Source: Escherichia coli
GTDB lineage: Bacteria > Pseudomonadota > Gammaproteobacteria > Enterobacterales > Enterobacteriaceae
DNA: 64,000 nucleotides
Direction: 5' to 3' (one strand)
Assembly: GCF_016026235.1 (NCBI RefSeq)
Contig: NZ_CP065613.1
Part shown: in pieces, positions 2,340 through 54,912 of the stretch
How positions within the stretch are numbered: position 1 is the first letter of the stretch
How the letters are laid out: each line of letters starts with the position of its first letter
The notes under the pieces: model-generated
Databases searched by the model: none
What the model was told of the DNA's origin: nothing
The model's input: only the letters and a program-made list of their open reading frames with translations
Program-made: the position numbers and the translations under genes

Positions 2340-3634
2340 CTGAGGGATCCCCAGAAAATTTAGTAAACCATTATCATATTGGTATACCGTTGCTGTAGAA
2401 CTTTCAGCCCTGCGTCAAGTGACAGTGTGTTTAGTATGAGTGGAGAATGTCGAATCACATTCTCCGCCAGTTTTAATAACGAGATGACTCGCCTGTGCTT
2501 CACTGTATTTGCCTGATATTTATGATGTATCCCTTTGTTTTCCAGGCTGAAACCGCTTAACCACATAATGATACTGGCTAATGTTGCGATCAGACTCAAT
2601 ACCGTGACCCGCCCAGATGAATGACTGGCACCAAACCGTAGTCCAAATCCCCAGCGAGGATTTTTTTCATCCCTGAAATTTTGCTCAATTTGCATTCTAC
2701 GGCTGTATAATTTCATTACCTGTTTTGGCGAGAACTCAGTACTGTTTGTGAAAATAAACCATGGTGATTTCCCGGCAGTACGAGCTTTAGCCGTCACCGA
2801 TGGTCTGGTTGCTCTTTCCTTCGAGCGTTTAAATCTACGACCTTTAGGCTTACTTTTATAAAGATAAAAATGCCCTTCATGTTGTGCATTTTTATCTCGA
2901 CCCAGCAGGCCTTCACCTAAATAAATTGCTGTCGTTGATGCTTTTGTGCCTGAGTCCGACACCTTTTCCCAGCCATTACCAACATTGTAATAATGATTGC
3001 CCAGTACCCGGCAAATATAGGTCCAGCCACGGGAGCGGAGCTGTTGGAACCATCGCCCCTGAAAACCGGCATCTGTAATAACAATGACATCAGTCCCGGG
3101 GGAAAAGCACTCAGCAAGCGATTCCAGAAAACGCTCATGTACATCTGCATTCGCTGTCTGTGATGATGGAACGACACAACTCATCAACGGTAAAGAACGC
3201 CCGTCACATGCCAGGCTTGCCCGCAAAAGCTGAAAACGAGAGGCATGATAAGCACTCCAGTCAATGAGTATCACAACACGAGACATTCCCCGCGTAATCT
3301 TTTGGGTAATTCGCTGAAAAATGGTGGAAACCTCATTTTGCAAATGTCGATTCCCCAACAGTCGATCCACCCGCTTTATTTTGTTTTTAACTGATGCCGT
3401 ACCGGTTAAATGACGCCCGATACTGGTAAGTGTGAGGGAAGCGCCATTTATTACAGCATTAGTTGCGTCAATCAGTGATTTTTGACGGTAAAGATGCAAA
3501 GGGGCCAGTATGTTGTTAAGGAAATTTTGGCATAATGAACGTGCAGGCATAGTGGTGATCTCCTTGAAATTGTTAGCACAATCAATTAGATCACATCTCA
3601 CTATGCCTGTCTTGTTTTCTGGGGATTCCTCAGG
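2340..3634 (-). mobile_element. IS4-family insertion sequence (IS10-like), copy 1, ~1295 bp, flanked by 9-bp direct repeat AGCATGCTC
   Basis: Imperfect terminal inverted repeats CTGAGGGATCCCCAG / CTGGGGATTCCTCAG; duplicated 9-mer at 2331..2339 and 3635..3643; internal transposase ORF. Confidence 0.85.
2360..3550 (-). CDS. IS4-family (IS10-like) DDE transposase
   Basis: Motifs KRVDRLLGNRHL, DAGF, YSRRMQIEQNFRDEK, HKYQANTVKHR resemble the IS10 transposase; start placed at MPARSLCQ by alignment to the IS10 transposase N-terminus. Confidence 0.8.
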   Translation of the reverse strand: MPARSLCQNFLNNILAPLHLYRQKSLIDATNAVINGASLTLTSIGRHLTGTASVKNKIKRVDRLLGNRHLQNEVSTIFQRITQKITRGMSRVVILIDWSAYHASRFQLLRASLACDGRSLPLMSCVVPSSQTANADVHERFLESLAECFSPGTDVIVITDAGFQGRWFQQLRSRGWTYICRVLGNHYYNVGNGWEKVSDSGTKASTTAIYLGEGLLGRDKNAQHEGHFYLYKSKPKGRRFKRSKERATRPSVTAKARTAGKSPWFIFTNSTEFSPKQVMKLYSRRMQIEQNFRDEKNPRWGFGLRFGASHSSGRVTVLSLIATLASIIMWLSGFSLENKGIHHKYQANTVKHRRVISLLKLAENVIRHSPLILNTLSLDAGLKVLQQRYTNMIMVY

Positions 3635-7104: not shown

Positions 7105-8619
<1,515 letters not shown>

Positions 8620-19072: not shown

Positions 19073-19157
19073 GCCGAAGTGGCGAAATCGGTAGACGCAG
19101 TTGATTCAAAATCAACCGTAGAAATACGTGCCGGTTCGAGTCCGGCCTTCGGCACCA
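19073..19157 (+). tRNA. leuX: tRNA-Leu (anticodon CAA)
   Basis: 85-nt sequence GCCGAAGTGGCGAAATCGGTAGACGCAGTTGATTCAAAATCAACC...GGCACCA with CAA anticodon loop, long variable arm and 3' CCA. Confidence 0.9.
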
Positions 19158-19320
19158 TTAGTACTTCCAAGAACATCCGAGAAAGTCCAATTATTCCTTA
19201 AAAATCAATGCTTGCAGCGACTTTTACGTCCTGTGTCTTCCGAGGTTGTCCGTTGAAATCCGGATGTTATTGGGGGCATAATTGGGGGCATCTTAACTTC
19301 GATTAGAAATGTGCCCCCAA

Positions 19321-20577
19321 ATGAAGCTTAACGCCAGACAGGTCGAGACCGCAAAGCCAAAAGACAAAACCTACAAAATGGCCGATGGTGGCGGTTTGTA
19401 TCTTGAGGTTTCGGTCAAAGGTTCCAAATACTGGCGCATGAAATACAGACGTCCCTCTGACAAAAAAGAGGATCGCCTCGCTTTTGGTGTTTGGCCTACT
19501 GTGACGCTTGCTCAGGCAAGAGCAAAACGCGATGAAGCTAAAAAGCTTTTAGTACAGGGCATAGACCCAAAAGTCGTACAAAAAGAAGCTCAGGCCGAGA
19601 ATTCGGGGGCATATACTTTTGAAACTATCGCCCGAGAATGGCATGCCAGTAACAAGCGTTGGAGTGAAGACCATCGATCGCGTGTTCTTCGCTATCTTGA
19701 GCTTTATATCTTTCCTCATATTGGTTCGTCCGACATTCGGCAGCTTAAAACCAGCCACCTGTTAACCCCGATTAAAAAAGTTGATGCCAGTGGCAAACAC
19801 GATGTCGCTCAGCGCCTGCAACAGCGCGTCACGGCCATTATGCGTTATGCCGTACAGAACGATTACATCGACTCAAATCCAGCCAGCGATATGGCCGGTG
19901 CGCTATCGACAACCAAAGCGCGACATTACCCTGCTTTACCTTCTAGCCGGTTCCCTGAGTTTCTTGCACGTCTTGCTGCCTATCGCGGCCGCAAAATGAC
20001 GCGTATTGCAGTCGAGTTATCTCTACTTACCTTCGTTCGCTCTAGTGAGATGCGATTTGCCCGATGGGATGAGTTTGATTTTGATAACGCCTGCTGGCGG
20101 ATACCGGCGCGGCGTGAAGAAATCGAAGGTGTGCGTTACTCCTATCGTGGGATGAAGATGAAAGAGGAACATATTGTTCCATTGAGCACTCAGGCTCTAG
20201 CTTTGCTGGATGAGTTGAAGAAGCTTAGTGGAGATAATCCTAGACTGTTTCCCGGTGATCATGATCCCAATAAAGTTATGAGCGAAAACACAGTTAATAA
20301 TGCGCTCAGGACTATGGGCTACGACACACAAACGGAAGTATGTGGGCATGGTTTTAGAACAATGGCGCGTGGTGCTTTGGGGGAGTCGGGGCTTTGGAGT
20401 GATGATGCGATAGAACGTCAGTTAAGCCACTCGGAGCGCAATAATGTTCGTGCAGCTTATATCCATACTTCAGAGCATTTGGACGAACGTCGATTGATGA
20501 TGCAATGGTGGGCGGATTTCCTATCAGCAAATCGTGAGACTTTCGTAACACCATTTGATTTTGCAAAAAAATATTAA
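19321..20577 (+). CDS. intB: P4-type tyrosine integrase
   Basis: Begins MKLNARQVETAKPKDKTYK; C-terminal catalytic region with HGFR...R motifs; lies immediately 3' of a tRNA gene. Confidence 0.9.
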   Translation: MKLNARQVETAKPKDKTYKMADGGGLYLEVSVKGSKYWRMKYRRPSDKKEDRLAFGVWPTVTLAQARAKRDEAKKLLVQGIDPKVVQKEAQAENSGAYTFETIAREWHASNKRWSEDHRSRVLRYLELYIFPHIGSSDIRQLKTSHLLTPIKKVDASGKHDVAQRLQQRVTAIMRYAVQNDYIDSNPASDMAGALSTTKARHYPALPSSRFPEFLARLAAYRGRKMTRIAVELSLLTFVRSSEMRFARWDEFDFDNACWRIPARREEIEGVRYSYRGMKMKEEHIVPLSTQALALLDELKKLSGDNPRLFPGDHDPNKVMSENTVNNALRTMGYDTQTEVCGHGFRTMARGALGESGLWSDDAIERQLSHSERNNVRAAYIHTSEHLDERRLMMQWWADFLSANRETFVTPFDFAKKY

Positions 20578-20668
20578 TAATTGATTTTTTCTGTATGTTT
20601 TTGTTAGGTATTAATCAATTTCAGTTTTACTTTCATCTATAACAGACTTATACACGGAATGATGCGTT

Positions 20669-23409
20669 ATGATTACAAAAGATATAGTTGTTAGTGCATA
20701 TAATTGTCTTAAGTCATATGCTTACTACGAAAACTTAAATTTTTTCCTAAAGGAAGAAATCGCTCAATTTGAAGATTCTCTCTATGACGAAAAAATAGAA
20801 AAAGTGGTTGATTTTTTTGAAAATAATAATGACATTAACTTTAATGAGTGGCTAAATAAAATTGATGTTGAATTATTACCAAAAAAAATTGATAGCCATT
20901 TGGATATTGAGCAAACGAGCGGAGCTCTTTTTTTAAGTAATAATAAGACATCAGATGAATACAAAGTAGGTGCTGTAAATTATTTGATCGTTGCTCCTAT
21001 TGAAATATATTTAATAGAAACACTCTGGTCTATCTTTGTTGGTTCAATGCTAGATGACAAGTTTTCTGATTCGGTTTATGGAAATAGAATATCAAAAGTA
21101 ATAAAAAATATTCTAAGAATAGTTTCGATGCGCCAAAAAACTCCTCAAAAAATATCTTTGAAAGATACATTGATAATTATAATAAATGGCGAGATGGTGG
21201 TATCGATAAAGCGATAGAAGTTATAGAAAAAGAGCGAAATGATGTTGCAATTCTTTCTCTGGATCTTAAGGGTTTTTATTATAATATAGATATAGATTTT
21301 GATGCCATTGATAGAATTATTGACGAAGAACAATTAGAAGAAATTAAAGCTCTTTCTATGTTGTTGAATAGTAAATTGAGGTTGATGCATCAAAAATACA
21401 GAGAGAAAATATCTCCATATATTGGTGTGACACATTCAACTCCTTCATCAAAAGGCATTCCAATTGGATTTACTTCTTCTGCCATATTATCTAATTGGTA
21501 TTTAATGGGTTTTGATAAAGATATTAAATCAAAAATTAACCCATCGTACTACGGTCGCTATGTGGATGATATTCTTTTAGTTTTTTCATCCCCGGACATT
21601 AAAAAAGAAGATAAAGGTGAAGAAGTAATAAAATTCATAGAGCGAACCCTTAATGGATTCATTAAACAGGCAGCGAATGATGAGAAAGGCTTTACGTTGA
21701 CCGAGAGTTATCATGAATTACCAATTCAAAAGGATAAATTGATTTTTCATTATTTCAATAAAGATCATAGTTTGGCTGGTTTACAAGTCTTCAAACAAGA
21801 AATTGAGAACAGAAGCAGTGCATTTCGTTTTTTACCGGAAGAACATATATCTAGCGATCTCGATAAATTTGCTTATGATATATTACTTGATGGTTCGGCA
21901 AATAAATTTAGAAGTATTGTAGGTTTGGCAGAGAATGAAACTGAATTATCAAAATATATATCATCACATATCTTAGCTCATAGGCTTTGCAATCTTCCAT
22001 CGAATGAGAATACCTTAAAGCAAATAACGCTGTTTTTTAAAGGTGAAAATTCTCTAAGGTTCAGTCGGTTATGGGAGAAAGTTCTATCGTATACATTAAT
22101 TACAAGAAAATATGGATTTTCAATCGCCTTTTACAAACAAATTAAAGAATCAATTAATAAAATTAAGTGGAAGGAAGGTGATAGTGTTATATCTCCAAAA
22201 CTTAAAAATGGAATGCAGAAATACATTGATATTTCTCTTTGTTTGAATTTGGCTTTGTTAGATTTAAATGTCATTTTAGGTGATAAAGAGCCACAAAATA
22301 GAGCTTTGGAAGGTTTGAAATCTTTAATTAAACAGTCCGATGGAATGTCTGTTCTAATTGAAAGATTTAGAAGCAGTAATTTGATTCGTCATAATCTAGT
22401 GTCTTGGCCTTTAGCTAACTATACTAAATATAAAGGAGATCTTACTGAGGAGAATTTATACAGTAAGATGCATGGTATTCCACTTGATAATGATAAATTA
22501 AATAAAACCCCTAGATATATTCATGCTGATGAAAAGCAGCTTTTCGATTTGATTGATGCTCTTCATACAAGAAAACTACATAAGTTTACGCATGAAAATA
22601 AGCATCACTTAAAAAATTGCTCTGTTACTAAGATAAAAGATAATAAAGCTCTTGAAATAAAGGTAGGAATTGATGATAGAAGTGGTAATGACACAATAAA
22701 AGTTGCGTTGGCAAATATGAGAGTTGAACGTCGTAATATTGAAAGTGCTTGCAGAAAAGATCAGTCTCCAAATTTAAGTTATGAACGACAAAGAAACCTT
22801 TATCGTATTCTCAACTCGGCAACTGAAGAAAATGTGCAGATATTACTACTCCCTGAGTTATCAATTCCTGTGTCGTGGTTACCTTTTATGGCAGCACATT
22901 CAAGGAGAAAACAAATATCTTTGATTTTCGGATTAGAGCATTGGGTTATTAACGAACGCGCATATAATATTTTGGTTGAAATGCTGCCTTATACTTCAAA
23001 CTTTAAACACAAATCCAGTATGTTAGTTTTTCGAGTGAAAAATCATTACGCACCTAGTGAGATTACGATGCTGAATTCTTTAAGGTTAAAAATATCCTCT
23101 CCTAAACCTAGTAAACAACGGTATCATTTGATTAAGTGGAAAAACGTATCATTTTCTACATACAACTGTTTTGAACTGGCTAATATCGAGCATAGAGCAT
23201 TATTTCGTTCGCAGTTGGATATTTTATTTGCTTGCGTATGGAATCAAGATATAAATTATTATCAACATATCACTGAGTCAGCGACACGGGATTTACATTG
23301 TTATGTGGCTCAATCGAATACTTCGCATTATGGCGGTTCTTGTGTTCTACAACCGACCAGTAGCACTATTTCAAATAAGATATATGTAAAAGGTGGGGAA
23401 AACCACTGA
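20669..23409 (+). pseudogene. reverse transcriptase-nitrilase fusion (DRT1/UG1-like), with a -1 frame change near 21130-21155 and 3' end severed by IS insertion
   Basis: Frame switch between ORF 20669..21217 and the frame carrying RT motif A (AILSLDLKGFYYNID) and motif C (YGRYVDDILLVF); C-terminal nitrilase-superfamily triad motifs LLLPELSIP, FRVKNHYAPSE, STYNCFELAN; stop codon TGA supplied by the IS end. Confidence 0.7.
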
Positions 23410-24700
23410 GGGATCCCCAGAAAATTTAGTAAACCATTATCATATTGGTATACCGTTGCTGTAGAACTTTCAGCCCTGCGTCAAGTGACAGTGTGTTTAG
23501 TATGAGTGGAGAATGTCGAATCACATTCTCCGCCAGTTTTAATAACGAGATGACTCGCCTGTGCTTCACTGTATTTGCCTGATATTTATGATGTATCCCT
23601 TTGTTTTCCAGGCTGAAACCGCTTAACCACATAATGATACTGGCTAATGTTGCGATCAGACTCAATACCGTGACCCGCCCGGATGAATGACTGGCACCAA
23701 ACCGTAGTCCAAATCCCCAGCGAGGATTTTTTTCATCCCTGAAATTTTGCTCAATTTGCATTCTACGGCTGTATAATTTCATTACCTGTTTTGGCGAGAA
23801 CTCAGTACTGTTTGTGAAAATAAACCATGGTGATTTCCCGGCAGTACGAGCTTTAGCCGTCACCGATGGTCTGGTTGCTCTTTCCTTCGAGCGTTTAAAT
23901 CTACGACCTTTAGGCTTACTTTTATAAAGATAAAAATGCCCTTCATGTTGTGCATTTTTATCTCGACCCAGCAGGCCTTCACCTAAATAAATTGCTGTCG
24001 TTGATGCTTTTGTGCCTGAGTCCGACACCTTTTCCCAGCCATTACCAACATTGTAATAATGATTGCCCAGTACCCGGCAAATATAGGTCCAGCCACGGGA
24101 GCGGAGCTGTTGGAACCATCGCCCCTGAAAACCGGCATCTGTAATAACAATGACATCAGTCCCGGGGGAAAAGCACTCAGCAAGCGATTCCAGAAAACGC
24201 TCATGTACATCTGCATTCGCTGTCTGTGATGATGGAACGACACAACTCATCAACGGTAAAGAACGCCCGTCACATGCCAGGCTTGCCCGCAAAAGCTGAA
24301 AACGAGAGGCATGATAAGCACTCCAGTCAATGAGTATCACAACACGAGACATTCCCCGCGTAATCTTTTGGGTAATTCGCTGAAAAATGGTGGAAACCTC
24401 ATTTTGCAAATGTCGATTCCCCAACAGTCGATCCACCCGCTTTATTTTGTTTTTAACTGATGCCGTACCGGTTAAATGACGCCCGATACTGGTAAGTGTG
24501 AGGGAAGCGCCATTTATTACAGCATTAGTTGCGTCAATCAGTGATTTTTGACGGTAAAGATGCAAAGGGGCCAGTATGTTGTTAAGGAAATTTTGGCATA
24601 ATGAACGTGCAGGCATAGTGGTGATCTCCTTGAAATTGTTAGCACAATCAATTAGATCACATCTCACTATGCCTGTCTTGTTTTCTGGGGATTCCTCAGG
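23406..24700 (-). mobile_element. IS4-family insertion sequence (IS10-like), copy 2, flanked by 9-bp direct repeat GGAAAACCA
   Basis: Same element as copy 1 at a constant offset; duplicated 9-mer at 23397..23405 and 24701..24709. Confidence 0.85.
23426..24616 (-). CDS. IS4-family (IS10-like) DDE transposase
   Basis: Identical protein to copy 1; the ORF-track N-terminal extension crosses the IS boundary and is not part of the gene. Confidence 0.8.
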   Translation of the reverse strand: MPARSLCQNFLNNILAPLHLYRQKSLIDATNAVINGASLTLTSIGRHLTGTASVKNKIKRVDRLLGNRHLQNEVSTIFQRITQKITRGMSRVVILIDWSAYHASRFQLLRASLACDGRSLPLMSCVVPSSQTANADVHERFLESLAECFSPGTDVIVITDAGFQGRWFQQLRSRGWTYICRVLGNHYYNVGNGWEKVSDSGTKASTTAIYLGEGLLGRDKNAQHEGHFYLYKSKPKGRRFKRSKERATRPSVTAKARTAGKSPWFIFTNSTEFSPKQVMKLYSRRMQIEQNFRDEKNPRWGFGLRFGASHSSGRVTVLSLIATLASIIMWLSGFSLENKGIHHKYQANTVKHRRVISLLKLAENVIRHSPLILNTLSLDAGLKVLQQRYTNMIMVY

Positions 24701-24709
24701 GGAAAACCA

Positions 24710-24848
24710 TTGCATCCTAACTACTACTTTAAATATATATGCATTGAGAGAGGCTCAATATCGTTCATTCAGAATTAACTCCGATACTATTAAACACAAT
24801 CCTCCAGGGTTTGACTATAATGCTCTATTAGAGCGAGGTGAGAAATGA
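24710..24848 (+). pseudogene. displaced 3' end (last 45 codons) of the RT-nitrilase gene
   Basis: After removing the IS and one duplicated 9-mer the RT frame continues ...GGENH-CILTTTLNIYALREAQYRSF...ERGEK to TGA at 24846..24848. Confidence 0.65.
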
Positions 24849-25534
24849 GTAGCTTTTGGGAAGGTATTTTGTCATCAAGCATTTCATTTGCAATTATTGG
24901 ATTTGTTTGTAAGGCTTTTTTACAACATATTGATAAAAGAGAGTTAGAATCATTTAAAAATAAGTTGAAATATGAAAGTGAACAGAGAATTAAAGAGGAT
25001 GAACGTGCTTATAATTTTAAAAAAGCAAGAGATCTTGAAATCGGACGTTGGGGGTTAACATTACTTAGTGCTGCAAATGGTTTTTTAGGAAGGCTATGTT
25101 ATATTAAAGATCACAATGACCTATCGTCGGATCAATATTATATTGATAGTACAAGATTCTATCTATGCCAATATTTTTGCTGGGTACATCAATTCAGGAA
25201 AAATAGAGATTCATCTGTATTTTCACCAACTAATGATGAAATGTTAATAACTGAATTAATCAAAAATATTTCTATAGCCCTACGAGAGAACGATATTGGT
25301 TTTCCTTGTATTAGATCTCTTGAACAAAAGTATATAGGTGAAAGCCTTAGCATTGGTGCTGAATGTATGTCCTATAAAGATTTTATCGATTCTAAAGTAT
25401 TAGAAAACTATGCACCTCTAAATGATTTTGTTGAAGCAATTCTACAAAATAATAATAAAGATTATATCGATAAACTCGTTATCCCATTCCAAGATCTCAA
25501 GACCAGATTTGATGCGGCATTACAAAATAAATGA
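24845..25534 (+). CDS. hypothetical protein with N-terminal transmembrane helix, translationally coupled to the RT-nitrilase gene
   Basis: 229-aa ORF; ATGA start/stop overlap with the RT tail; hydrophobic segment ILSSSISFAIIGFVCKAFL; AT-rich like the RT gene. Confidence 0.6.
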   Translation: MSSFWEGILSSSISFAIIGFVCKAFLQHIDKRELESFKNKLKYESEQRIKEDERAYNFKKARDLEIGRWGLTLLSAANGFLGRLCYIKDHNDLSSDQYYIDSTRFYLCQYFCWVHQFRKNRDSSVFSPTNDEMLITELIKNISIALRENDIGFPCIRSLEQKYIGESLSIGAECMSYKDFIDSKVLENYAPLNDFVEAILQNNNKDYIDKLVIPFQDLKTRFDAALQNK

Positions 25535-25735
25535 TTTTTTTACCTGCGCGCAATGCTCTCCCCGCCTCGCCCGCCCGCTTTGCGGGGCGGTTTTAATGCA
25601 GTTGCACTGACACGCTCAGACCGCGCCGGGAATGGCGCGGTCTGCAGAAAATGAGGCAGGGAAACGCATGCAAAGCCATGCACCTTATCGATGCATGGCT
25701 TTTTTCAGTAAAAACAGGCGGATTTTCGGGGAATT

Positions 25736-26279
25736 TTACACAGACTGACGTGATGCCAGTTGCGCACTTTTACGCGAAAAAATCATGTTCTGCGCAGGGG
25801 TGAATTTTTCACGGCTGTCATCCACCGAAGCCGCGTCAGGCCTGAATCCGATGGTCGTTAAAATGTCGCTATCCTGTGCGGAATAATTAATTTTTTCACC
25901 CTTCGCAAGCCAGGACAGGAGGGCTTCACGCAGGGCATCTGTGGCACGCTGTATGGCACAGTTTCGGGCAATGGCCGTCAGCTCACTGTAGCCCATCAGC
26001 TCCGGTGCCAGTGCCGCCGCCAGTGCTGTGCCGTGCTGCTGCATAAAATCATTCAGCCGGTCGCGGATGCTGATGTGCTGAACGGCTTCATGCGAACGAA
26101 TATAACGACCGGCGGCCTGATTCACCTGCCATTTTCTGACTTCGATAATATTGCGTAATTCGTCCAGGCGACTGACGTTTCTGCCTTCTCCTGACAGAAG
26201 CCGCAGATATTCCTGTTCGGCCGCAGCCAGCTCATTTTTGCGTTGCAGCCATGCTGCTTTGTTATTCTGACAGGTGTCA
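25736..26279 (-). pseudogene. psu: P4 Psu-like (polarity suppression) protein, 5' end truncated by IS1
   Basis: 180-aa alpha-helical product recognised as P4 Psu-like; the first codons of ORF 25736..26293 are read from IS1 terminal sequence, so the native start is missing. Confidence 0.55.
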
Positions 26280-26334
26280 GGTAATGCTGCCAACTTACTG
26301 ATTTAGTGTATGATGGTGATTTTAAGGTGCTTGC

Positions 26335-26610
26335 GTGGCTTCCATTTCCATCAGATGTGCTTCCTGCTCCGCTACTGAAGGCGTGGTGCGTAACGGCAAA
26401 AGCACTGCCGGACATCAGCGCTATCTCTGCTCTCATTGCCGTAAAACATGGCAACTGCAGTTCACTTACACCGCCTCTCAGCCCGGTACGCACCAGAAAA
26501 TCATTGATATGGCCATGAATGGCGTCGGATGTCGCGCCAGTGCACGCATTATGGGCGTTGGCCTCAACACGGTTTTACGTCACTTAAAAAACTCAGGCCG
26601 CAGTCGGTAA
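26335..26610 (+). CDS. insA: IS1 InsA
   Basis: 91-aa product with zinc-finger CxxC...CxxC and HTH, matching InsA. Confidence 0.9.
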
Positions 26611-27032
26611 CCTCGCGCATACAACCGGGCAGTGATGTGATTGTCTGCGCTGAAATGGACGAACAGTGGGGCTACGTCGGTGCTAAATCACGTCAGCGCT
26701 GGCTGTTTTACGCGTATGACAGGATACGGAGGACGGTTGTGGCGCACGTCTTCGGTGAACGCACTCTGGCCACACTGGAGCGTCTTCTGAGCCTGCTGTC
26801 GGCCTTTGAGGTCGTGGTATAGATGACGGATGGCTGGCCGCTGTATGAATCACGCCTGAAGGGAAAGCTGCACGTTATCAGCAAGCGTTACACTCAGCGC
26901 ATTGAGCGACATAATCTGAATCTGAGACAACATCTGGCAAGGCTGGGACGGAAGTCACTGTCGTTCTCAAAATCGGTGGAGCTGCATGACAAGGTCATCG
27001 GGCATTATCTGAACATAAAACACTATCAGTAA
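26529..27032 (+). pseudogene. insB: IS1 InsB with internal TAG stop at 26820..26822
   Basis: InsB frame is split into ORFs 26529..26822 and 26823..27032 by one stop where IS1 normally has a Trp codon (VVIWMTDGW). Confidence 0.7.
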
Positions 27033-27345
27033 GTTGGAGTCATTACCCGGCGTGCGTGCCAGGTACAGTCGTTCGGCTGGAAAAATACGGGGGCTGAGCC
27101 TGCTGGCAACACTGAGCACAATAGTGCGGTGGCTTATTGGCTATCACGCTTAAAATAAAGGGGTAGATCTGAGACAGCAGGCCAACAGAATTAAAACGCG
27201 GCGGGTAATATCGTATCTGACATTAGCGAAGAATATCTTGCGATACTCCTCGCTAATTTTAAAACGAATGGTGCTGATCACCGTTCTTAATCACTTCGCC
27301 AGAACCGACCATAATATGGTGTTGGTTTATTAGCGCTGATTCATG

Positions 27346-36179: not shown

Positions 36180-36418
36180 TATTTTGATGACATTAATATC
36201 CTCCAGGATTTCAGGAACGTGGAGGATATTAATTCCTCTTATTTTCTCCATTTTTCTTTCTTCCAGTCAGGACTGCATCCGATTAATCGTAAGGCAGTAT
36301 GACTTTCTGTGAGACAGATGCTGGCCAACGTGGGATATTTAACGCGGGTTAACATCGTTGTCAGAGCCGCATGGGTGAGCTGTTGCTACACCCCGGTATT
36401 TCCACCACGGAGGCCAGC

Positions 36419-37546
36419 ATGAACAACAATAACACATTGTACGTCGGGTTAGATGTTCACAAAGAATCGATTACTGTCGCTTATGCTATCAATTCAGAAC
36501 CTGTTGAACTGATGGGTAAAATTGGCACATCACCTACTGATATTCAGAATCTTTGTAAACGTCTCAGGTCAAAGTCATCGCAGGTCAGTATCGTTTATGA
36601 AGCGGGGCCCTGTGGTTATGGACTTTATCGTCGGCTGGTGAAATCCGGTTTTGACTGCATGGTCTGCGCCCCCTCACTTATCCCGAAAAAACCGGGGGAG
36701 CGGGTTAAAACCGATCGCCGTGATGCCATCAGACTTGTGCGTTCACTGCGTGCAGGAGATCTTTCTGCTGTCTACGTACCCGGCATTGAAGATGAGGCAT
36801 TCCGGGATTTGGCCCGGGCATGGGCATCTGCCCGCGATGATTTACGGCATGCAAGGCAACGTCTGAAATCGTTTCTTCTGGTTCATGGGGTCCATTATGT
36901 CGGGCGAGCAGATTGGGGCCCTGCACACCGACGCTGGCTCAGCAAATACTCATTCGAAAGTCCCTGGCGACAATTAGCTTTTGACGAACACCGTCGTACA
37001 ATAGAAGACCGGCAGGCACAATGTGAACGGCTGGAATCCGCCCTGAAGGAGGCCGTTACCGAATGGAGGCTGTATCCGGTAGTAGAGGCGCTGCAAGCCA
37101 TGCGAGGGATTCAGTTTATTACTGCGGTTGGATTAATTTCTGAACTGGGTGATCTGACCCGTTTTGAACATCCACGACAACTGATGTCATGGTTTGGTAT
37201 CACGCCATCAGAATATTCATCGGGTGGAAGCAGACATCAGGGCAGCATTACCAAAGCCGGAAACAGCTATGCCAGAAAGCTATTGGTCGAGGCAGCGTGG
37301 AGTTACCGTCATCCGGCACGCATCAGTCCGGCAATACAAAAAAGGCAGGAAAATTTACCCCGCCCCGTCATTGACAGAGCATGGGATGCTCAACTCAGGC
37401 TTTGTAAGAGGTATCGAAAACTTCAGGCCAAAGGAAAGAATGTCAATATTACAATTGTTGCTGTTGCACGTGAGCTGGCGGGTTTTATCTGGGATATGGG
37501 CCGAATAGCAATATCTGTCGCACAACAACCACAATGTCACAAATAA
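36419..37546 (+). CDS. IS110-family transposase/recombinase (DEDD N-terminal domain)
   Basis: Start at MNNNNTLYVGLDVHKESI after GGAGG; C-terminal motif GITPSEYSSGGSRHQGSITKAGNSYARKLL typical of the IS110 family. Confidence 0.8.
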   Translation: MNNNNTLYVGLDVHKESITVAYAINSEPVELMGKIGTSPTDIQNLCKRLRSKSSQVSIVYEAGPCGYGLYRRLVKSGFDCMVCAPSLIPKKPGERVKTDRRDAIRLVRSLRAGDLSAVYVPGIEDEAFRDLARAWASARDDLRHARQRLKSFLLVHGVHYVGRADWGPAHRRWLSKYSFESPWRQLAFDEHRRTIEDRQAQCERLESALKEAVTEWRLYPVVEALQAMRGIQFITAVGLISELGDLTRFEHPRQLMSWFGITPSEYSSGGSRHQGSITKAGNSYARKLLVEAAWSYRHPARISPAIQKRQENLPRPVIDRAWDAQLRLCKRYRKLQAKGKNVNITIVAVARELAGFIWDMGRIAISVAQQPQCHK

Positions 37547-38138
37547 AAAATGAGAATAACCAGTTCCCTGAAGGCGACGTAGCCCGGTACAAGAGTAACC
37601 CACGTTAGCGCTTGGCGACGGCGGAACAAAGCTGATTCGCGACGTAAGAAAGTGGCAGGCTCATATGACGGACCTCTGTAATGCGGTATCCAACCCGCGA
37701 ATATCAGCGTGATTCACCGTCGGATTTACTGCTACGTCGCCCTCAGGGAATTAAACCTAAAAAGAAAATCGTCAAAATTAGAGATTCCGGTTTGACACGG
37801 AAAGTCATATCAGCGCTGACGGGTGACCCTAAGCCCTGATAATCATAGCTTAAGGTGAGGATTTATGAGGGATTAATTAGGAAAAGTAATAATTAATTTG
37901 TTGTCAGTCGGCGATGTTTGTTAGGCCAATATTTCAAAAATAATCCAGCTTGTCGTCAATAATTGCGATAAAGAGATAAATTAAAGTTAAATAATTAAAT
38001 CATTAAAAAATTACGCCATTAAAATGCGAGGCGTCTTCCGGATTAGAATCGATAAAACAGAATGGGTTAAAGAGAGCGATATAATAGCGGCGGGTGCTTG
38101 AGGCTGTCTGTCTCAGGCATTAGCTGAACGGCAGATAG

Positions 38139-38193
38139 AGAAAAGCCCCGAGTGATATTTTACCATCAACCCGAGGCCCCCTATATGCTGAAC
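38139..38193 (-). ncRNA. sokC: putative Sok-type antisense RNA of the hok/mok locus (position inferred, not seen)
   Basis: Inferred from the canonical hok/sok layout, in which the antitoxin RNA is antisense to the mok start region; no promoter or terminator verified. Confidence 0.3.
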
Positions 38194-38394
38194 ACATGTA
38201 GAGTGCCTCTTACTGACCGTAAGGTCAAGGAGAAGAGAGCAATGAAGCAGCATAAGGCGATGATTGTCGCCCTGATCGTCATCTGTATCACCGCCGTAGT
38301 GGCGGCGCTGGTAACGAGAAAAGACCTCTGTGAGGTTCACATCCGAACTGGCCAGACGGAGGTTGCTGTTTTCACGGCTTACGAATCCGAGTAA
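38185..38394 (+). CDS. mokC: Mok-type translational coupling frame overlapping hok
   Basis: 69-codon frame starting MLNTCRVPL that ends at the same stop as hok. Confidence 0.6.
   Translation: MLNTCRVPLTDRKVKEKRAMKQHKAMIVALIVICITAVVAALVTRKDLCEVHIRTGQTEVAVFTAYESE
38242..38394 (+). CDS. hokC: Hok/Gef-family type I toxin (50 aa)
   Basis: MKQHKAMIVALIVICITAVVAALVTRKDLCEVHIRTGQTEVAVFTAYESE, a single-TM Hok family peptide. Confidence 0.85.
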   Translation: MKQHKAMIVALIVICITAVVAALVTRKDLCEVHIRTGQTEVAVFTAYESE

Positions 38395-38417: not shown

Positions 38418-39712
38418 CTGAGGGATCCCCAGAAAATTTAGTAAACCATTATCATATTGGTATACCGTTGCTGTAGAACTTTCAGCCCTGCGTCAAGTGA
38501 CAGTGTGTTTAGTATGAGTGGAGAATGTCGAATCACATTCTCCGCCAGTTTTAATAACGAGATGACTCGCCTGTGCTTCACTGTATTTGCCTGATATTTA
38601 TGATGTATCCCTTTGTTTTCCAGGCTGAAACCGCTTAACCACATAATGATACTGGCTAATGTTGCGATCAGACTCAATACCGTGACCCGCCCGGATGAAT
38701 GACTGGCACCAAACCGTAGTCCAAATCCCCAGCGAGGATTTTTTTCATCCCTGAAATTTTGCTCAATTTGCATTCTACGGCTGTATAATTTCATTACCTG
38801 TTTTGGCGAGAACTCAGTACTGTTTGTGAAAATAAACCATGGTGATTTCCCGGCAGTACGAGCTTTAGCCGTCACCGATGGTCTGGTTGCTCTTTCCTTC
38901 GAGCGTTTAAATCTACGACCTTTAGGCTTACTTTTATAAAGATAAAAATGCCCTTCATGTTGTGCATTTTTATCTCGACCCAGCAGGCCTTCACCTAAAT
39001 AAATTGCTGTCGTTGATGCTTTTGTGCCTGAGTCCGACACCTTTTCCCAGCCATTACCAACATTGTAATAATGATTGCCCAGTACCCGGCAAATATAGGT
39101 CCAGCCACGGGAGCGGAGCTGTTGGAACCATCGCCCCTGAAAACCGGCATCTGTAATAACAATGACATCAGTCCCGGGGGAAAAGCACTCAGCAAGCGAT
39201 TCCAGAAAACGCTCATGTACATCTGCATTCGCTGTCTGTGATGATGGAACGACACAACTCATCAACGGTAAAGAACGCCCGTCACATGCCAGGCTTGCCC
39301 GCAAAAGCTGAAAACGAGAGGCATGATAAGCACTCCAGTCAATGAGTATCACAACACGAGACATTCCCCGCGTAATCTTTTGGGTAATTCGCTGAAAAAT
39401 GGTGGAAACCTCATTTTGCAAATGTCGATTCCCCAACAGTCGATCCACCCGCTTTATTTTGTTTTTAACTGATGCCGTACCGGTTAAATGACGCCCGATA
39501 CTGGTAAGTGTGAGGGAAGCGCCATTTATTACAGCATTAGTTGCGTCAATCAGTGATTTTTGACGGTAAAGATGCAAAGGGGCCAGTATATTGTTAAGGA
39601 AATTTTGGCATAATGAACGTGCAGGCATAGTGGTGATCTCCTTGAAATTGTTAGCACAATCAATTAGATCACATCTCACTATGCCTGTCTTGTTTTCTGG
39701 GGATTCCTCAGG
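38418..39712 (-). mobile_element. IS4-family insertion sequence (IS10-like), copy 3, flanked by 9-bp direct repeat AGTGATCCC
   Basis: Same termini as copies 1 and 2; duplicated 9-mer at 38409..38417 and 39713..39721; target lies in GGGGAGTGATCCCC. Confidence 0.85.
38438..39628 (-). CDS. IS4-family (IS10-like) DDE transposase
   Basis: Identical protein to copies 1 and 2. Confidence 0.8.
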   Translation of the reverse strand: MPARSLCQNFLNNILAPLHLYRQKSLIDATNAVINGASLTLTSIGRHLTGTASVKNKIKRVDRLLGNRHLQNEVSTIFQRITQKITRGMSRVVILIDWSAYHASRFQLLRASLACDGRSLPLMSCVVPSSQTANADVHERFLESLAECFSPGTDVIVITDAGFQGRWFQQLRSRGWTYICRVLGNHYYNVGNGWEKVSDSGTKASTTAIYLGEGLLGRDKNAQHEGHFYLYKSKPKGRRFKRSKERATRPSVTAKARTAGKSPWFIFTNSTEFSPKQVMKLYSRRMQIEQNFRDEKNPRWGFGLRFGASHSSGRVTVLSLIATLASIIMWLSGFSLENKGIHHKYQANTVKHRRVISLLKLAENVIRHSPLILNTLSLDAGLKVLQQRYTNMIMVY

Positions 39713-39801: not shown

Positions 39802-40932
39802 TTAGCGGGTCAGGTCGTCAAAAAACTTCTTCACACCATCAAAGAAGCTCTTTGAGCGCGGGCTGTTGTGCTCGCCGGTTGGGCCACCGAAGCTTTCTTG
39901 CAGCTCTTGCAGCAGCTGTTTCTGCTTCTCGTTCAGGCCTACCGGTGTTTCGACGACAACGCGGCACAGCAAATCACCCTGTGCGCCACCGCGGACAGAC
40001 TTGACGCCTTTACCGCGCATACGGAATAGCTTACCGGTCTGGGTTTCGCCAGGCACTTTCAGTTTGACGCGACCATCAAGGGTCGGTACTTCGATTTCGC
40101 CACCCAGCGCCGCCATAGCGAAGTTGATCGGGACTTCGCAATACAGGTTGTTGCCTTCACGCTCGAAAATCGGGTGCTGTTTAACCTGAACCTGAACGTA
40201 CAGATCGCCTGCCGGTGCGCCATGCTCGCCCGCTTCACCTTCGCCCGCAAGACGGATGCGGTCTCCAGTGTCCACCCCTGCCGGGATTTTAACGGACAGC
40301 GTTTTGCTGCGCTCAACACGACCATGACCATGACATTTGTTGCACGGATCTTTGATCAGCGTACCGCGGCCCTGACAGTGTGGACAGGTCTGCTGCACGG
40401 CAAAGAAACCCTGGCGCATCTGCACCTGACCAGAACCATGACAGGTCGGACAGGTCTGCGGCTGTGTACCTGGTTTTGCACCGCTACCGTGGCAAACGTC
40501 ACACTCTTCCAGAGTCGGAATGCGGATCTCTTTGGTCACGCCACGTACAGCTTCTTCGAGGGTGAGCTCCATGTTATAGCGTAAATCAGCACCGCGCGCC
40601 GCACGTTGACGACCACGTCCGCCGCCAAAAATATCGCCGAAAACGTCACCAAAAATATCGCTGAAGTCTGCGCCGCCGCCAAAACCGCCGCCGCCCATGC
40701 CACCTTGCTCAAACGCAGCATGACCATACTGATCGTATGCCGCACGTTTTTGCGAGTCGGTCAGAACTTCATAAGCTTCCTTGATCTCTTTAAATTTCGC
40801 CTCGGCCTCTTTGTCACCCTGGTTACGGTCTGGGTGGTATTTCATGGCCAGGCGTTTGTAGGCCTTTTTGATTTCACGCTCTTCCGCTGTTTTGGAAACG
40901 CCTAAAATCTCGTAATAATCTTGCTTAGCCAT
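39802..40932 (-). CDS. dnaJ: chaperone DnaJ (Hsp40)
   Basis: J-domain with HPD, G/F-rich region and four CxxCxGxG zinc motifs; start at [11 protein letters not shown]. Confidence 0.97.
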
Positions 40933-41020
40933 CTTTTTTAAATTGCCCCTAGATGAATGCACGGGCGGAGAGGAAATTCCCCTTCGCCCGTGTCAGTATA
41001 ATTACCCGTTTATAGGGCGA

Positions 41021-42937
41021 TTATTTTTTGTCTTTGACTTCTTCAAATTCAGCGTCGACAACATCGTCATCTTTCGCGTTGTTTGCAGAAGCATCAGCAC
41101 CGGCAGTCTGCTGCTGGGCATGTTGCTGCTGGGCGATTTCCATCAGTTTCTGGGAAACCTGTGCCAGTTCCTGCATTTTCGCTTCGATAGCGGCTTTGTC
41201 TTCACCTTTCAGAGCAGTTTCCAGTGCAGTCAGCGCAGACTCGATAGCAGTTTTGTCGTCAGCCGGCAGTTTGTCGCCTGCTTCTTCAACCTGCTTACGG
41301 GTGCTGTGCAGCAGATGGTCGCCCTGGTTGCGAGTCTGTACCAGCTCTTCAAACTTACGGTCAGCTTCGGCGTTAGCTTCTGCGTCGCGTACCATTTTCT
41401 GGATTTCATCTTCGTTCAGACCAGAAGAAGCCTTGATGGTGATCTTCTGCTCTTTACCGCTGTTTTTATCTTTCGCGGAAACGTGCAGGATACCGTCAGC
41501 ATCGATATCGAAGGTAACTTCGATCTGCGGCATGCCGCGCGGTGCCGGGTTGATACCATCCAGGTTGAACTGACCCAGAGATTTGTTATCAGCCGCACGT
41601 TTACGTTCACCCTGCAGCACGTGGATGGTTACCGCAGACTGGTTGTCTTCAGCGGTAGAGAACACCTGGCTGTGCTTGGTCGGGATAGTGGTGTTTTTCG
41701 CGATCAGCGTCGTCATCACACCGCCCATGGTTTCGATACCCAGAGACAGCGGGGTAACGTCCAGCAGCAGTACGTCTTTTACGTCACCAGTCAGAACACC
41801 ACCCTGAACAGCAGCACCGATTGCTACAGCTTCGTCCGGGTTAACATCTTTACGCGGCTCTTTACCAAAGAACTCAGCAACTTTCTTCTGAACCATTGGC
41901 ATACGAGTCTGACCACCAACGAGGATAACGTCGTCGATATCAGATACGGACAGGCCAGCGTCCTGCAGTGCAACTTTCAGCGGCTCAATGGAACGGTTTA
42001 CCAGATCTTCAACCAGGCTTTCCAGTTTCGCACGAGTCACTTTGATGTTCATGTGTTTCGGACCGGTCGCGTCTGCAGTGATGTACGGCAGGTTAACGTC
42101 GGTCTGCTGAGCGGAAGACAGTTCGATTTTCGCTTTTTCTGCCGCTTCTTTCAGGCGCTGCATTGCCAGCGGATCGTTGCGCAGGTCAATGCCCTGATCT
42201 TTCTTGAATTCTTCAACCAGATAGTTGATCAGACGGCTGTCGAAGTCTTCACCACCCAGGTGGGTATCACCGTTGGTTGCCAGAACTTCGAAGGTTTTTT
42301 CGCCGTCAACTTCGTCGATTTCGATAATAGAAATATCGAAAGTACCACCACCCAGGTCATAAACCGCGATAGTACGGTTGCCAGTACCTTTGTCCAGACC
42401 GTAAGCCAGCGCAGCTGCGGTCGGTTCGTTGATGATACGTTTTACTTCGAGACCAGCGATACGGCCTGCGTCTTTGGTTGCCTGACGCTGAGCATCGTTA
42501 AAGTATGCCGGTACGGTGATAACAGCTTCAGTTACCGGTTCACCCAGGTAATCTTCAGCGGTTTTCTTCATTTTTTTCAGCACTTCAGCAGAGATCTGCG
42601 GCGGTGCCATTTTCTGGCCTTTAACTTCGACCCATGCGTCGCCGTTATCAGCAGCAATAATTTTGAACGGCATGATGGAAACATCACGCTGTACTTCTTC
42701 GTCCTGGAAGCGGCGGCCAATCAGGCGTTTAATCGCAAACAGGGTGTTTTGCGGGTTCGTCACTGCCTGACGTTTAGCCGGCTGACCAACCAGAGTTTCA
42801 CCATCCTGGGTATAGGCAATAATAGAAGGCGTGGTGCGATCGCCTTCGGCGTTCTCCAGCACGCGAGGAGTGGTGCCATCCATAATCGCTACACAAGAGT
42901 TGGTAGTACCCAGGTCGATACCAATTATTTTACCCAT
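41021..42937 (-). CDS. dnaK: chaperone DnaK (Hsp70)
   Basis: 638-aa Hsp70 with signatures IDLGTTNS and DLGGGTFD. Confidence 0.98.
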
Positions 42938-54763: not shown

Positions 54764-54791
54764 GGTTGTTACCTCGTTACCTTTGGTCGAA

Positions 54792-54828
54792 AAAAAAGCC
54801 CGCACTGTCAGGTGCGGGCTTTTTTCTG
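54792..54828 (-). terminator. thr operon attenuator terminator
   Basis: Minus-strand hairpin AAAAGCCCGCACCTGACAGTGCGGGCTTTTTTTT between thrL and thrA. Confidence 0.75.
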
Positions 54829-54843
54829 TGTTTCCTGTACGCG

Positions 54844-54912
<69 letters not shown>

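Follow-up and report, generated by a model that had tools for sequence, protein, structure and literature searches.

What kind of system occupies the AT-rich interval between a P4-type integrase gene and a Psu-like gene in a 64,000-nucleotide stretch of Escherichia coli DNA (contig NZ_CP065613.1 of assembly GCF_016026235.1; the whole stretch is referred to herein as the window), and is that system still a working one? The original prediction, made from the sequence alone, had taken the interval at 20578-25735 for a satellite-borne antiphage reverse transcriptase (RT) system of the UG1/DRT1 class, whose coupling to a small membrane protein might be an undescribed variant. The cassette consists of a 958-codon RT-nitrilase gene and an overlapping 229-codon membrane-protein gene, and in our assessment it is very probably a decayed copy of a system that has already been characterised, the UG5-large 'RT-nitrilase + 1TM' system, with the intact form working as proposed below. 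The system has been on record since 2022, with its two-gene architecture, its location in a P4 hotspot and its anti-phage activity, and PADLOC already includes it; the only difference here is that the copy is broken.

This identification draws on a comparison with the E. coli E101 system. Rousset et al. (2022) found 'RT-nitrilase + 1TM' of E101 in the P4 psu-int hotspot, cloned the cassette as pFR76 and reported that it gave phage resistance at room temperature from its native promoter; the pFR76 insert and its proteins are printed in their Table S2A (PMC9122126). In the window, too, the P4 int-psu hotspot is occupied by this pair of genes. Between its membrane protein and protein 2 of pFR76 the identity is 100%, the repaired RT begins with the same 399 residues as are printed for the pFR76 RT, and the leader DNA is identical from window position 20546 onwards. 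What sets the window copy apart is that it is broken by a frameshift and an insertion sequence (IS), and that its satellite has been cut by IS1. We take the E101 system to be the one listed in DefenseFinder as Rst_RT-nitrilase-Tm.

Lesions of the RT-nitrilase gene

The lesions were mapped against an intact E. coli locus (L001; NZ_CP062910.1), to which the window was aligned and in which a 958-residue 'RNA-directed DNA polymerase' (WP_000628823.1) and a 229-residue hypothetical protein (WP_000094232.1) are encoded between the integrase and psu genes of a complete P4-like satellite. The RT-nitrilase gene of the window is split over three plus-strand open reading frames (ORFs; 20669-21217, 21358-23409 and 24576-24848), and the alignment resolves it into three parts. 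The first part (20669-21102, plus strand; codons 1-145), which matches positions 1-150 of the PADLOC RT_UG5-nitrilase model, ends in a run of six A residues at 21097-21102. This run has seven A residues in intact copies, and the one-base deletion, placed at window position 21103 (L001 9526), causes a frameshift at codon 145, so that every catalytic RT motif, motif A included, lies downstream of it. The second part (21103-23405, plus strand; codons 146-913) is out of frame with the first and carries motif A, the YVDD box and the nitrilase residues, as seen in the PADLOC and RVT_1 matches and in the AlphaFold2 (AF2) model. Codon 913 is interrupted by an ISEc60-like element of the IS4 family (23406-24698, minus strand; 1293 bp; NCBIfam transpos_IS4_2, E = 1e-107), which has terminal inverted repeats CTGAGGGATCCCC / TGAGGAATCCCC, shows 100% identity to E. 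coli genome copies annotated as ISEc60, and lies between the left (23395-23405) and right (24699-24709) copies of an 11-bp target-site duplication, GGGGAAAACCA. The third part (24710-24848, plus strand) holds the last 45 codons and the stop, including a K941-x-x-P-P-G-F tail, and matches positions 909-958 of the same PADLOC model.

Addition of one A to the run at 21097-21102 and removal of 23406-24709 (the IS and one copy of the duplication) yielded an ORF of exactly 958 residues, in agreement with the original prediction of a frame-corrected, IS-deleted protein of about that length. The prediction had also called for a comparison with intact homologues, and this bore it out: the repaired RT differs from the 958-residue protein of L001 by a single change, I499M, and the membrane-protein gene next to it corresponds to the 229-residue protein of that locus. 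A sequencing error does not explain the frameshift, which FDAARGOS_943 and JNE170426 share through the same A deletion. FDAARGOS_943, the closest complete genome, shares the frameshift and the IS1-truncated psu gene and carries a different IS insertion, and the ISEc60/RT junction of the window was found in 0 of 5,426 complete E. coli genomes. As the conserved C-terminal tail motif sits downstream of the ISEc60-like element, the insertion alone would disable the protein. The intact reading frames expected of a functional member are thus absent from the window copy, which on its sequence is a pseudogene, a dead copy that belongs to UG5-large by descent.

Disruption of this gene has recurred. Fifteen copies of the cassette were compared (14 annotated E. 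coli loci and the window), and, disruptions aside, no more than 18 positions in 3.56 kb vary among them, with 11 non-synonymous and 7 synonymous substitutions. Measured against L001, the RT gene has suffered at least six independent disruptions among these near-identical copies (L002, L005, L006, L009, L014 and the window), namely a nonsense codon, an ISEc60 insertion, two indels in homopolymers and IS1 insertions at two different sites. The A7-to-A6 change at nt 435 is shared by the window, FDAARGOS_943 and JNE170426; an additional A at nt 122 is found in FORC_031, and W174* in strain M15. IS1 is inserted at nt 305 in FDAARGOS_943 and at nt 1808 in AF14, while the ISEc60 insertion, at nt 2738, is that of the window. 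Table S1 of Rousset et al. lists the M-series mouse genomes, but gives no RT protein for them.

The membrane-protein gene, on the other hand, is intact in all 15 copies, and this pattern could be taken to mean that the membrane protein serves a separate function and that only the RT-nitrilase half is dispensable or counter-selected. We consider this improbable. The RT gene makes up 81% of the target, so that, calculated from gene lengths, all six disruptions would fall within it by chance with p ~0.28; the apparent asymmetry is not significant, and we rejected it as evidence of independent function. The membrane-protein family is moreover found only directly downstream of these RT genes, and the ratio of non-synonymous to synonymous changes speaks for only weak constraint. 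The disruption pattern fits either weak constraint or a cost, and does not tell the two apart. A more specific proposal, that the RT-nitrilase gene is actively counter-selected in host-adapted E. coli or Shigella-like lineages, possibly owing to a cost or to autoimmunity at 37 °C, appears rather unlikely to us; a cost at 37 °C is conceivable because the assays of the published system were all made at room temperature.

It is highly improbable that the window copy still functions, whether by slippage on the A run restoring the frame or by cooperation of the split fragments with the intact membrane protein. The lesion does lie in a homopolymer (A6), a kind of site at which transcription or translation can slip, and the membrane-protein gene is identical to the one that was tested. 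Whatever the frame, however, the ISEc60-like element removes the last 45 residues together with the invariant tail, and short deletions of the homologous tail of DRT1, whose last ~19 residues form an essential domain-swapped lid, abolish defence (PMC13275509). The frameshift is also fixed in three independent assemblies, and two of these lineages each gained a further IS, which is the pattern to be expected of a gene that decays once its function is lost. We also considered whether programmed frameshifting on the A run could rescue the gene, and rejected this, as the IS insertion is disabling by itself.

Family of the RT-nitrilase and its membrane partner

Against the PADLOC profile RT_UG5-nitrilase (PDLC02995; 958 positions), the three fragments cover positions 1-150, 231-913 and 909-958 with 279.5, 1649.3 and 101.5 bits, respectively, and the PADLOC profile RTasNitrilase matches the RT-nitrilase protein with E = 1.8e-28. 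Pfam RVT_1 matches the E. coli protein with E = 9e-11 and was found in 30 of 30 homologues (44-81% identity). The sequence segments on which the original prediction was built are all present, and its coordinates are correct: SDSVYGNRISK is encoded in the ORF at 20669-21217, the motif A segment AILSLDLKGFYYNID at ~21246-21293, in the frame of the following ORF, and the YVDD segment YGRYVDDILLVF and the nitrilase segments LLLPELSIP, FRVKNHYAPSE and STYNCFELAN in the ORF at 21358-23409. The catalytic residues are invariant in the 30 homologues down to 44% identity, comprising D199 of motif A, Y298-V299-D300-D301, and E730, K791, C834 and E836 of the nitrilase domain. Given the RVT_1 match, the PADLOC coverage and these invariant residues, the RT and nitrilase motifs are not chance similarities, and the prediction of an RT-nitrilase fusion belonging to the defence-associated UG/Abi RTs is borne out by the RT_UG5-nitrilase match.

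Structure prediction, which had been named as a check, agrees. In the AF2 model of the RT-nitrilase (predicted local distance difference test (pLDDT) 78.7; predicted template-modelling score (pTM) 0.82), the C-terminal domain was matched by Foldseek to nitrilase-superfamily amidases (target template-modelling score ~0.63; probability 1.00), and the N-terminal half to the RTs of AbiA, AbiK, DRT9, G2L4 and diversity-generating retroelements.

The nearest alternative family is DRT1 (UG1; Gao et al. 2020). Had the cassette been a DRT1 member, as originally proposed, the pairing with a transmembrane (TM) protein would be a new variant of that type. The resemblance is real: both are class 3 RT-nitrilase fusions with the nitrilase at the C-terminus, and when a profile of the family was compared with the sequences in the PDB, the best match was the DRT1 structure 9yfd_A (E = 1.9e-25), across the RT and nitrilase parts, with the YVDD box aligned to that of DRT1 (D324/D325) and C834 to C1116. 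By eye, the two also share a C-terminal K-x-x-P-x-G-F tail, which in DRT1 reads K1219-T-Q-P-A-G-F. In addition, the UG1 nitrilases nest within the UG5 radiation, and some DRT1 loci likewise have a TM gene, drt1b. The structure 9yfd was not among the Foldseek matches (library entries up to April 2026), and no direct superposition was obtained.

A DRT1 member would be expected to give its full-length best match to the Drt1a profile and to measure 1200-1300 residues (PMC9226505), whereas the Drt1a models reach only 68.6 and 35.3 bits, over ~90-100 residues, and the protein has 958 residues, ~270 fewer than the ~1230 of DRT1. The partial Drt1a score, set against 1649 bits for RT_UG5-nitrilase, refutes membership. 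Rousset et al. likewise set the RT apart from type I DRT, writing that it 'belongs to a different clade' (PMC9122126), and the partner is RTasTM. As both the profile and the size tests fail, we regard assignment to DRT1 as barely credible. By its profile matches the cassette instead belongs to UG5-large, a class 3 UG/Abi RT family, which Mestre et al. (2022) describe as carrying a fused C-N hydrolase, with a downstream TM protein in some members (clusters 85/1858; 31/299 members; PMC9226505).

The partner is encoded by an intact gene at 24845-25534 (plus strand), whose start overlaps the RT stop by 4 bases. Its 229-residue product matches the PADLOC profile RTasTM from end to end (1-229/229; E = 5e-164), and no other PADLOC model matched it, even at E <= 10. 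The AF2 model (pLDDT 87) is all helical, with one N-terminal TM helix at residues 3-28 followed by a helical domain, which the basic residues after that helix suggest to be cytoplasmic. Homologues form 29 clusters (45-100% identity), in Enterobacterales only. At every TM-protein locus examined (Pantoea, Pectobacterium and Aeromonas) the TM gene overlaps the end of an RT gene encoding 957-963 residues; in Aeromonas it is an unnamed ORF of 228 residues. Among the loci examined, the TM gene accompanies only the clade of RTs that are >= 60% identical to that of E. coli (Pantoea, Pectobacterium aquaticum and Aeromonas), and two RT homologues at ~45% identity, from Pectobacterium odoriferum (L012) and Marinobacter nauticus (L013), have no TM neighbour. 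These TM-less homologues agree with the count of Mestre et al. and with the TM-less DRT11 system discussed below. Thus, as judged from these gene neighbourhoods, the TM pairing is the canonical architecture for this RT clade; the idea that it was an undescribed variant does not hold, as the pairing had been described by Mestre et al. and cloned by Rousset et al.

Proposed working of the intact system

Biochemical work on class 3 RTs offers a scheme for how an intact copy might act. Neville et al. (2026) reported that purified DRT1, DRT5S and DRT5L polymerise deoxynucleoside triphosphates without a template, covalently onto the protein itself. For DRT1, the DNA adduct was found to drive the assembly of tetramers and filaments, both licensing the nitrilase and keeping it closed; the nitrilase is essential, and mutation of D324/D325 or C1116 abolishes defence. 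Activation needs the phage T4 helicase Dda, and the outcome is abortive infection (PMC13275509). A UG5-large system, DRT11 of Sinorhizobium meliloti, needs its RT and nitrilase catalytic residues, and no non-coding RNA was seen for it (bioRxiv 10.64898/2025.12.16.694600). DRT11 and the family described here share a YVDD RT fused to a C-terminal CN-hydrolase, abortive-infection-like defence and the lack of a detected non-coding RNA; in the window, an Rfam scan, to which no purpose-built covariance model was added because class 3 RTs are reported to be template-free, found no RNA family inside 20578-25735.

On the strength of these results for DRT1, DRT5S/L and DRT11, we propose that the intact E. 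coli system follows the same scheme: by homology, its product is probably protein-primed, untemplated DNA, by which a nitrilase effector is controlled. The RT domain would carry out template-independent, protein-primed DNA synthesis, as shown for its close relatives; the covalent DNA adduct would lead to oligomerisation and keep the C-terminal nitrilase effector dormant; and phage replication functions would release the nitrilase, resulting in abortive infection. In the enterobacterial clade the membrane protein may be an obligatory, translationally coupled partner, acting as a membrane effector or anchor controlled by the RT-DNA adduct.

Two features of the family fit this scheme. The first is the C-terminal tail, in which the K941, P944, P945 and G946 columns (K941-x-x-P944-P945-G946-F; window ~24792-24812) are invariant among the 30 homologues. 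The second is an R-S-S-A-F-x-F-L-P loop at residues 382-390 (window ~21811-21837), which is invariant, has low pLDDT and lies ~82 residues after YVDD. The priming serine of DRT1, S402, is reported not to be conserved in other class 3 RTs (PMC13275509), and the 382-390 loop is a candidate, but only a candidate, for the priming site of UG5-large protein-primed synthesis. For the TM partner, Neville et al. raise Hailong, in which the HalA channel is blocked by a HalB poly-dA adduct, as an analogy for DRT1b (PMC13275509). A polymerase-made DNA adduct might similarly gate the membrane protein of this clade, a purely speculative model for the TM partner only; no sequence or fold similarity was found for the TM protein, and its single TM helix differs from a channel-like multi-pass fold.

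Several points weigh against identifying the locus and its working in this way. The mechanism is transferred from DRT1 and DRT5L, and we infer that the 'DRT5L' of Neville et al. is UG5-large, an equation that is not spelled out there. The phage resistance is that shown for the near-identical E101 cassette (PMC9122126). The profile check that had been proposed came out in part: the RT and UG5 profiles match, while Pfam CN_hydrolase was not reached by the E. coli protein alone, although it was found in 5 of the 30 homologues at E <= 0.001 and in 12 of the 30 at E <= 0.1, which, along with the invariant residues and the fold search, settles this point. A profile of residues 335-460 gave no alignment with the S402 region of DRT1, only insignificant matches (AcrIIC4, E = 0.08). 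With respect to the partner, fold searches with the membrane-protein model returned generic helical bundles only; the necessity of the TM gene is a statement of Mestre et al. (PMC9226505); and DRT11, which differs in being plasmid-borne and 1005 residues long, works without a TM partner.

The leuX satellite remnant and decay of its cargo

The window is chromosomal DNA of E. coli/Shigella type, and around the cassette its gene order is idnD, idnK, ahr, tRNA-Leu(CAA), a 422-residue tyrosine integrase, the AT-rich cassette and psu. The tRNA gene, leuX (19073-19157, plus strand; ARAGORN and Rfam tRNA), is the integration site of the satellite, and the ahr-tRNA-Leu-int context recurs in the annotated E. 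coli genomes examined. The P4-type integrase gene (19309-20577, plus strand; NCBIfam PRK09692 integrase domain, E = 1.5e-82) is intact, and RefSeq names its orthologues tyrosine recombinase/integrase. The cassette begins with an AT-rich leader (20578-20668, plus strand) that contains its native promoter region, the pFR76 insert, active from its native promoter, starting at window position 20546; a scan of the leader with a strict sigma-70 consensus found no site. Downstream of the membrane-protein gene is a GC-rich spacer of P4 backbone (25535-25735) with a terminator-like hairpin at 25571-25590, and this stretch of backbone recurs in the other P4 clones whose sequences appear in Table S2A of Rousset et al. 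The guanine-cytosine (GC) content is 0.29-0.36 within the cassette (20578 to ~25535), except for one 1.3-kb stretch at 0.43-0.48, and 0.48-0.54 in the flanks, which confirms the predicted AT-rich locus between a P4-type integrase and a Psu-like gene.

The psu (polarity suppression) gene lies at 25736-26279 (minus strand; PHROG 6366, E = 2.6e-96, profile positions 11-190 of 190). Its 5' end has been cut by IS1: the psu-containing minus-strand ORF spans 25736-26293, similarity to L001 ends at 26279, and IS1 (26280-27047, plus strand; its ends read in the sequence) stands in place of the rest of the satellite. FDAARGOS_943 has the same IS1-cut psu arrangement and the same junction. The intact satellite of L001 comprises psu, delta, a gene in the sid position, the alpha primase gene and other genes, and its delta-to-alpha region (L001 13400-20400) had no match anywhere in the window, in which the satellite is incomplete, without delta, sid, alpha and others. 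The cargo nonetheless sits between psu and a P4-type integrase gene adjoining a tRNA gene, as does the cargo of the intact satellite. As predicted, the locus is cargo that a P4-like satellite at leuX carries in its int-psu hotspot; of the satellite itself only a remnant is left. Of the claim of a satellite-borne antiphage RT system, the RT family and the satellite cargo are upheld; the window copy itself is a pseudogene in a truncated satellite.

Beyond the cassette, the window holds three 1293-bp ISEc60-like copies in the same orientation (2340-3632, 23406-24698 and 38418-39710), 1292/1293 identical to one another and each with its own 11-bp target duplication; FDAARGOS_943 holds ~38 copies of this element. 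An IS110-family transposase ORF is present at 36371-37546, in addition to the IS1 at 26280-27047. Within ~35 kb after the leuX island follow sokC (38092-38244), dnaJ/dnaK (39802-42937, minus strand), talB and thrCBA, with the thr leader at 54789-54908 (minus strand) and then arcA and creDCBA. On the K-12 map, leuX and thrL are presumably much further apart. The genome thus seems to have undergone a large deletion or rearrangement, probably through IS elements, that joins leuX to the dnaK-thr-arcA region; the IS copies and this junction both suggest an IS-rich, rearranged genome. Unrelated to the cassette is a match to the Rfam antisense small RNA family Ysr276 (175.6 bits; 7864-8058, plus strand) inside a minus-strand ORF at 7105-8616.

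The useful outcomes of this analysis are corrections: the RT-nitrilase is UG5-large and not DRT1, as its profile matches indicate, its pairing with a TM protein is canonical, and the copy in the window is a pseudogene in a satellite remnant, on account of which the genome should not be credited with an active defence. Repeated, independent knock-outs of the RT gene could be the sign of a fitness cost, and the locus illustrates the speed with which satellite defence cargo decays in IS-rich genomes.

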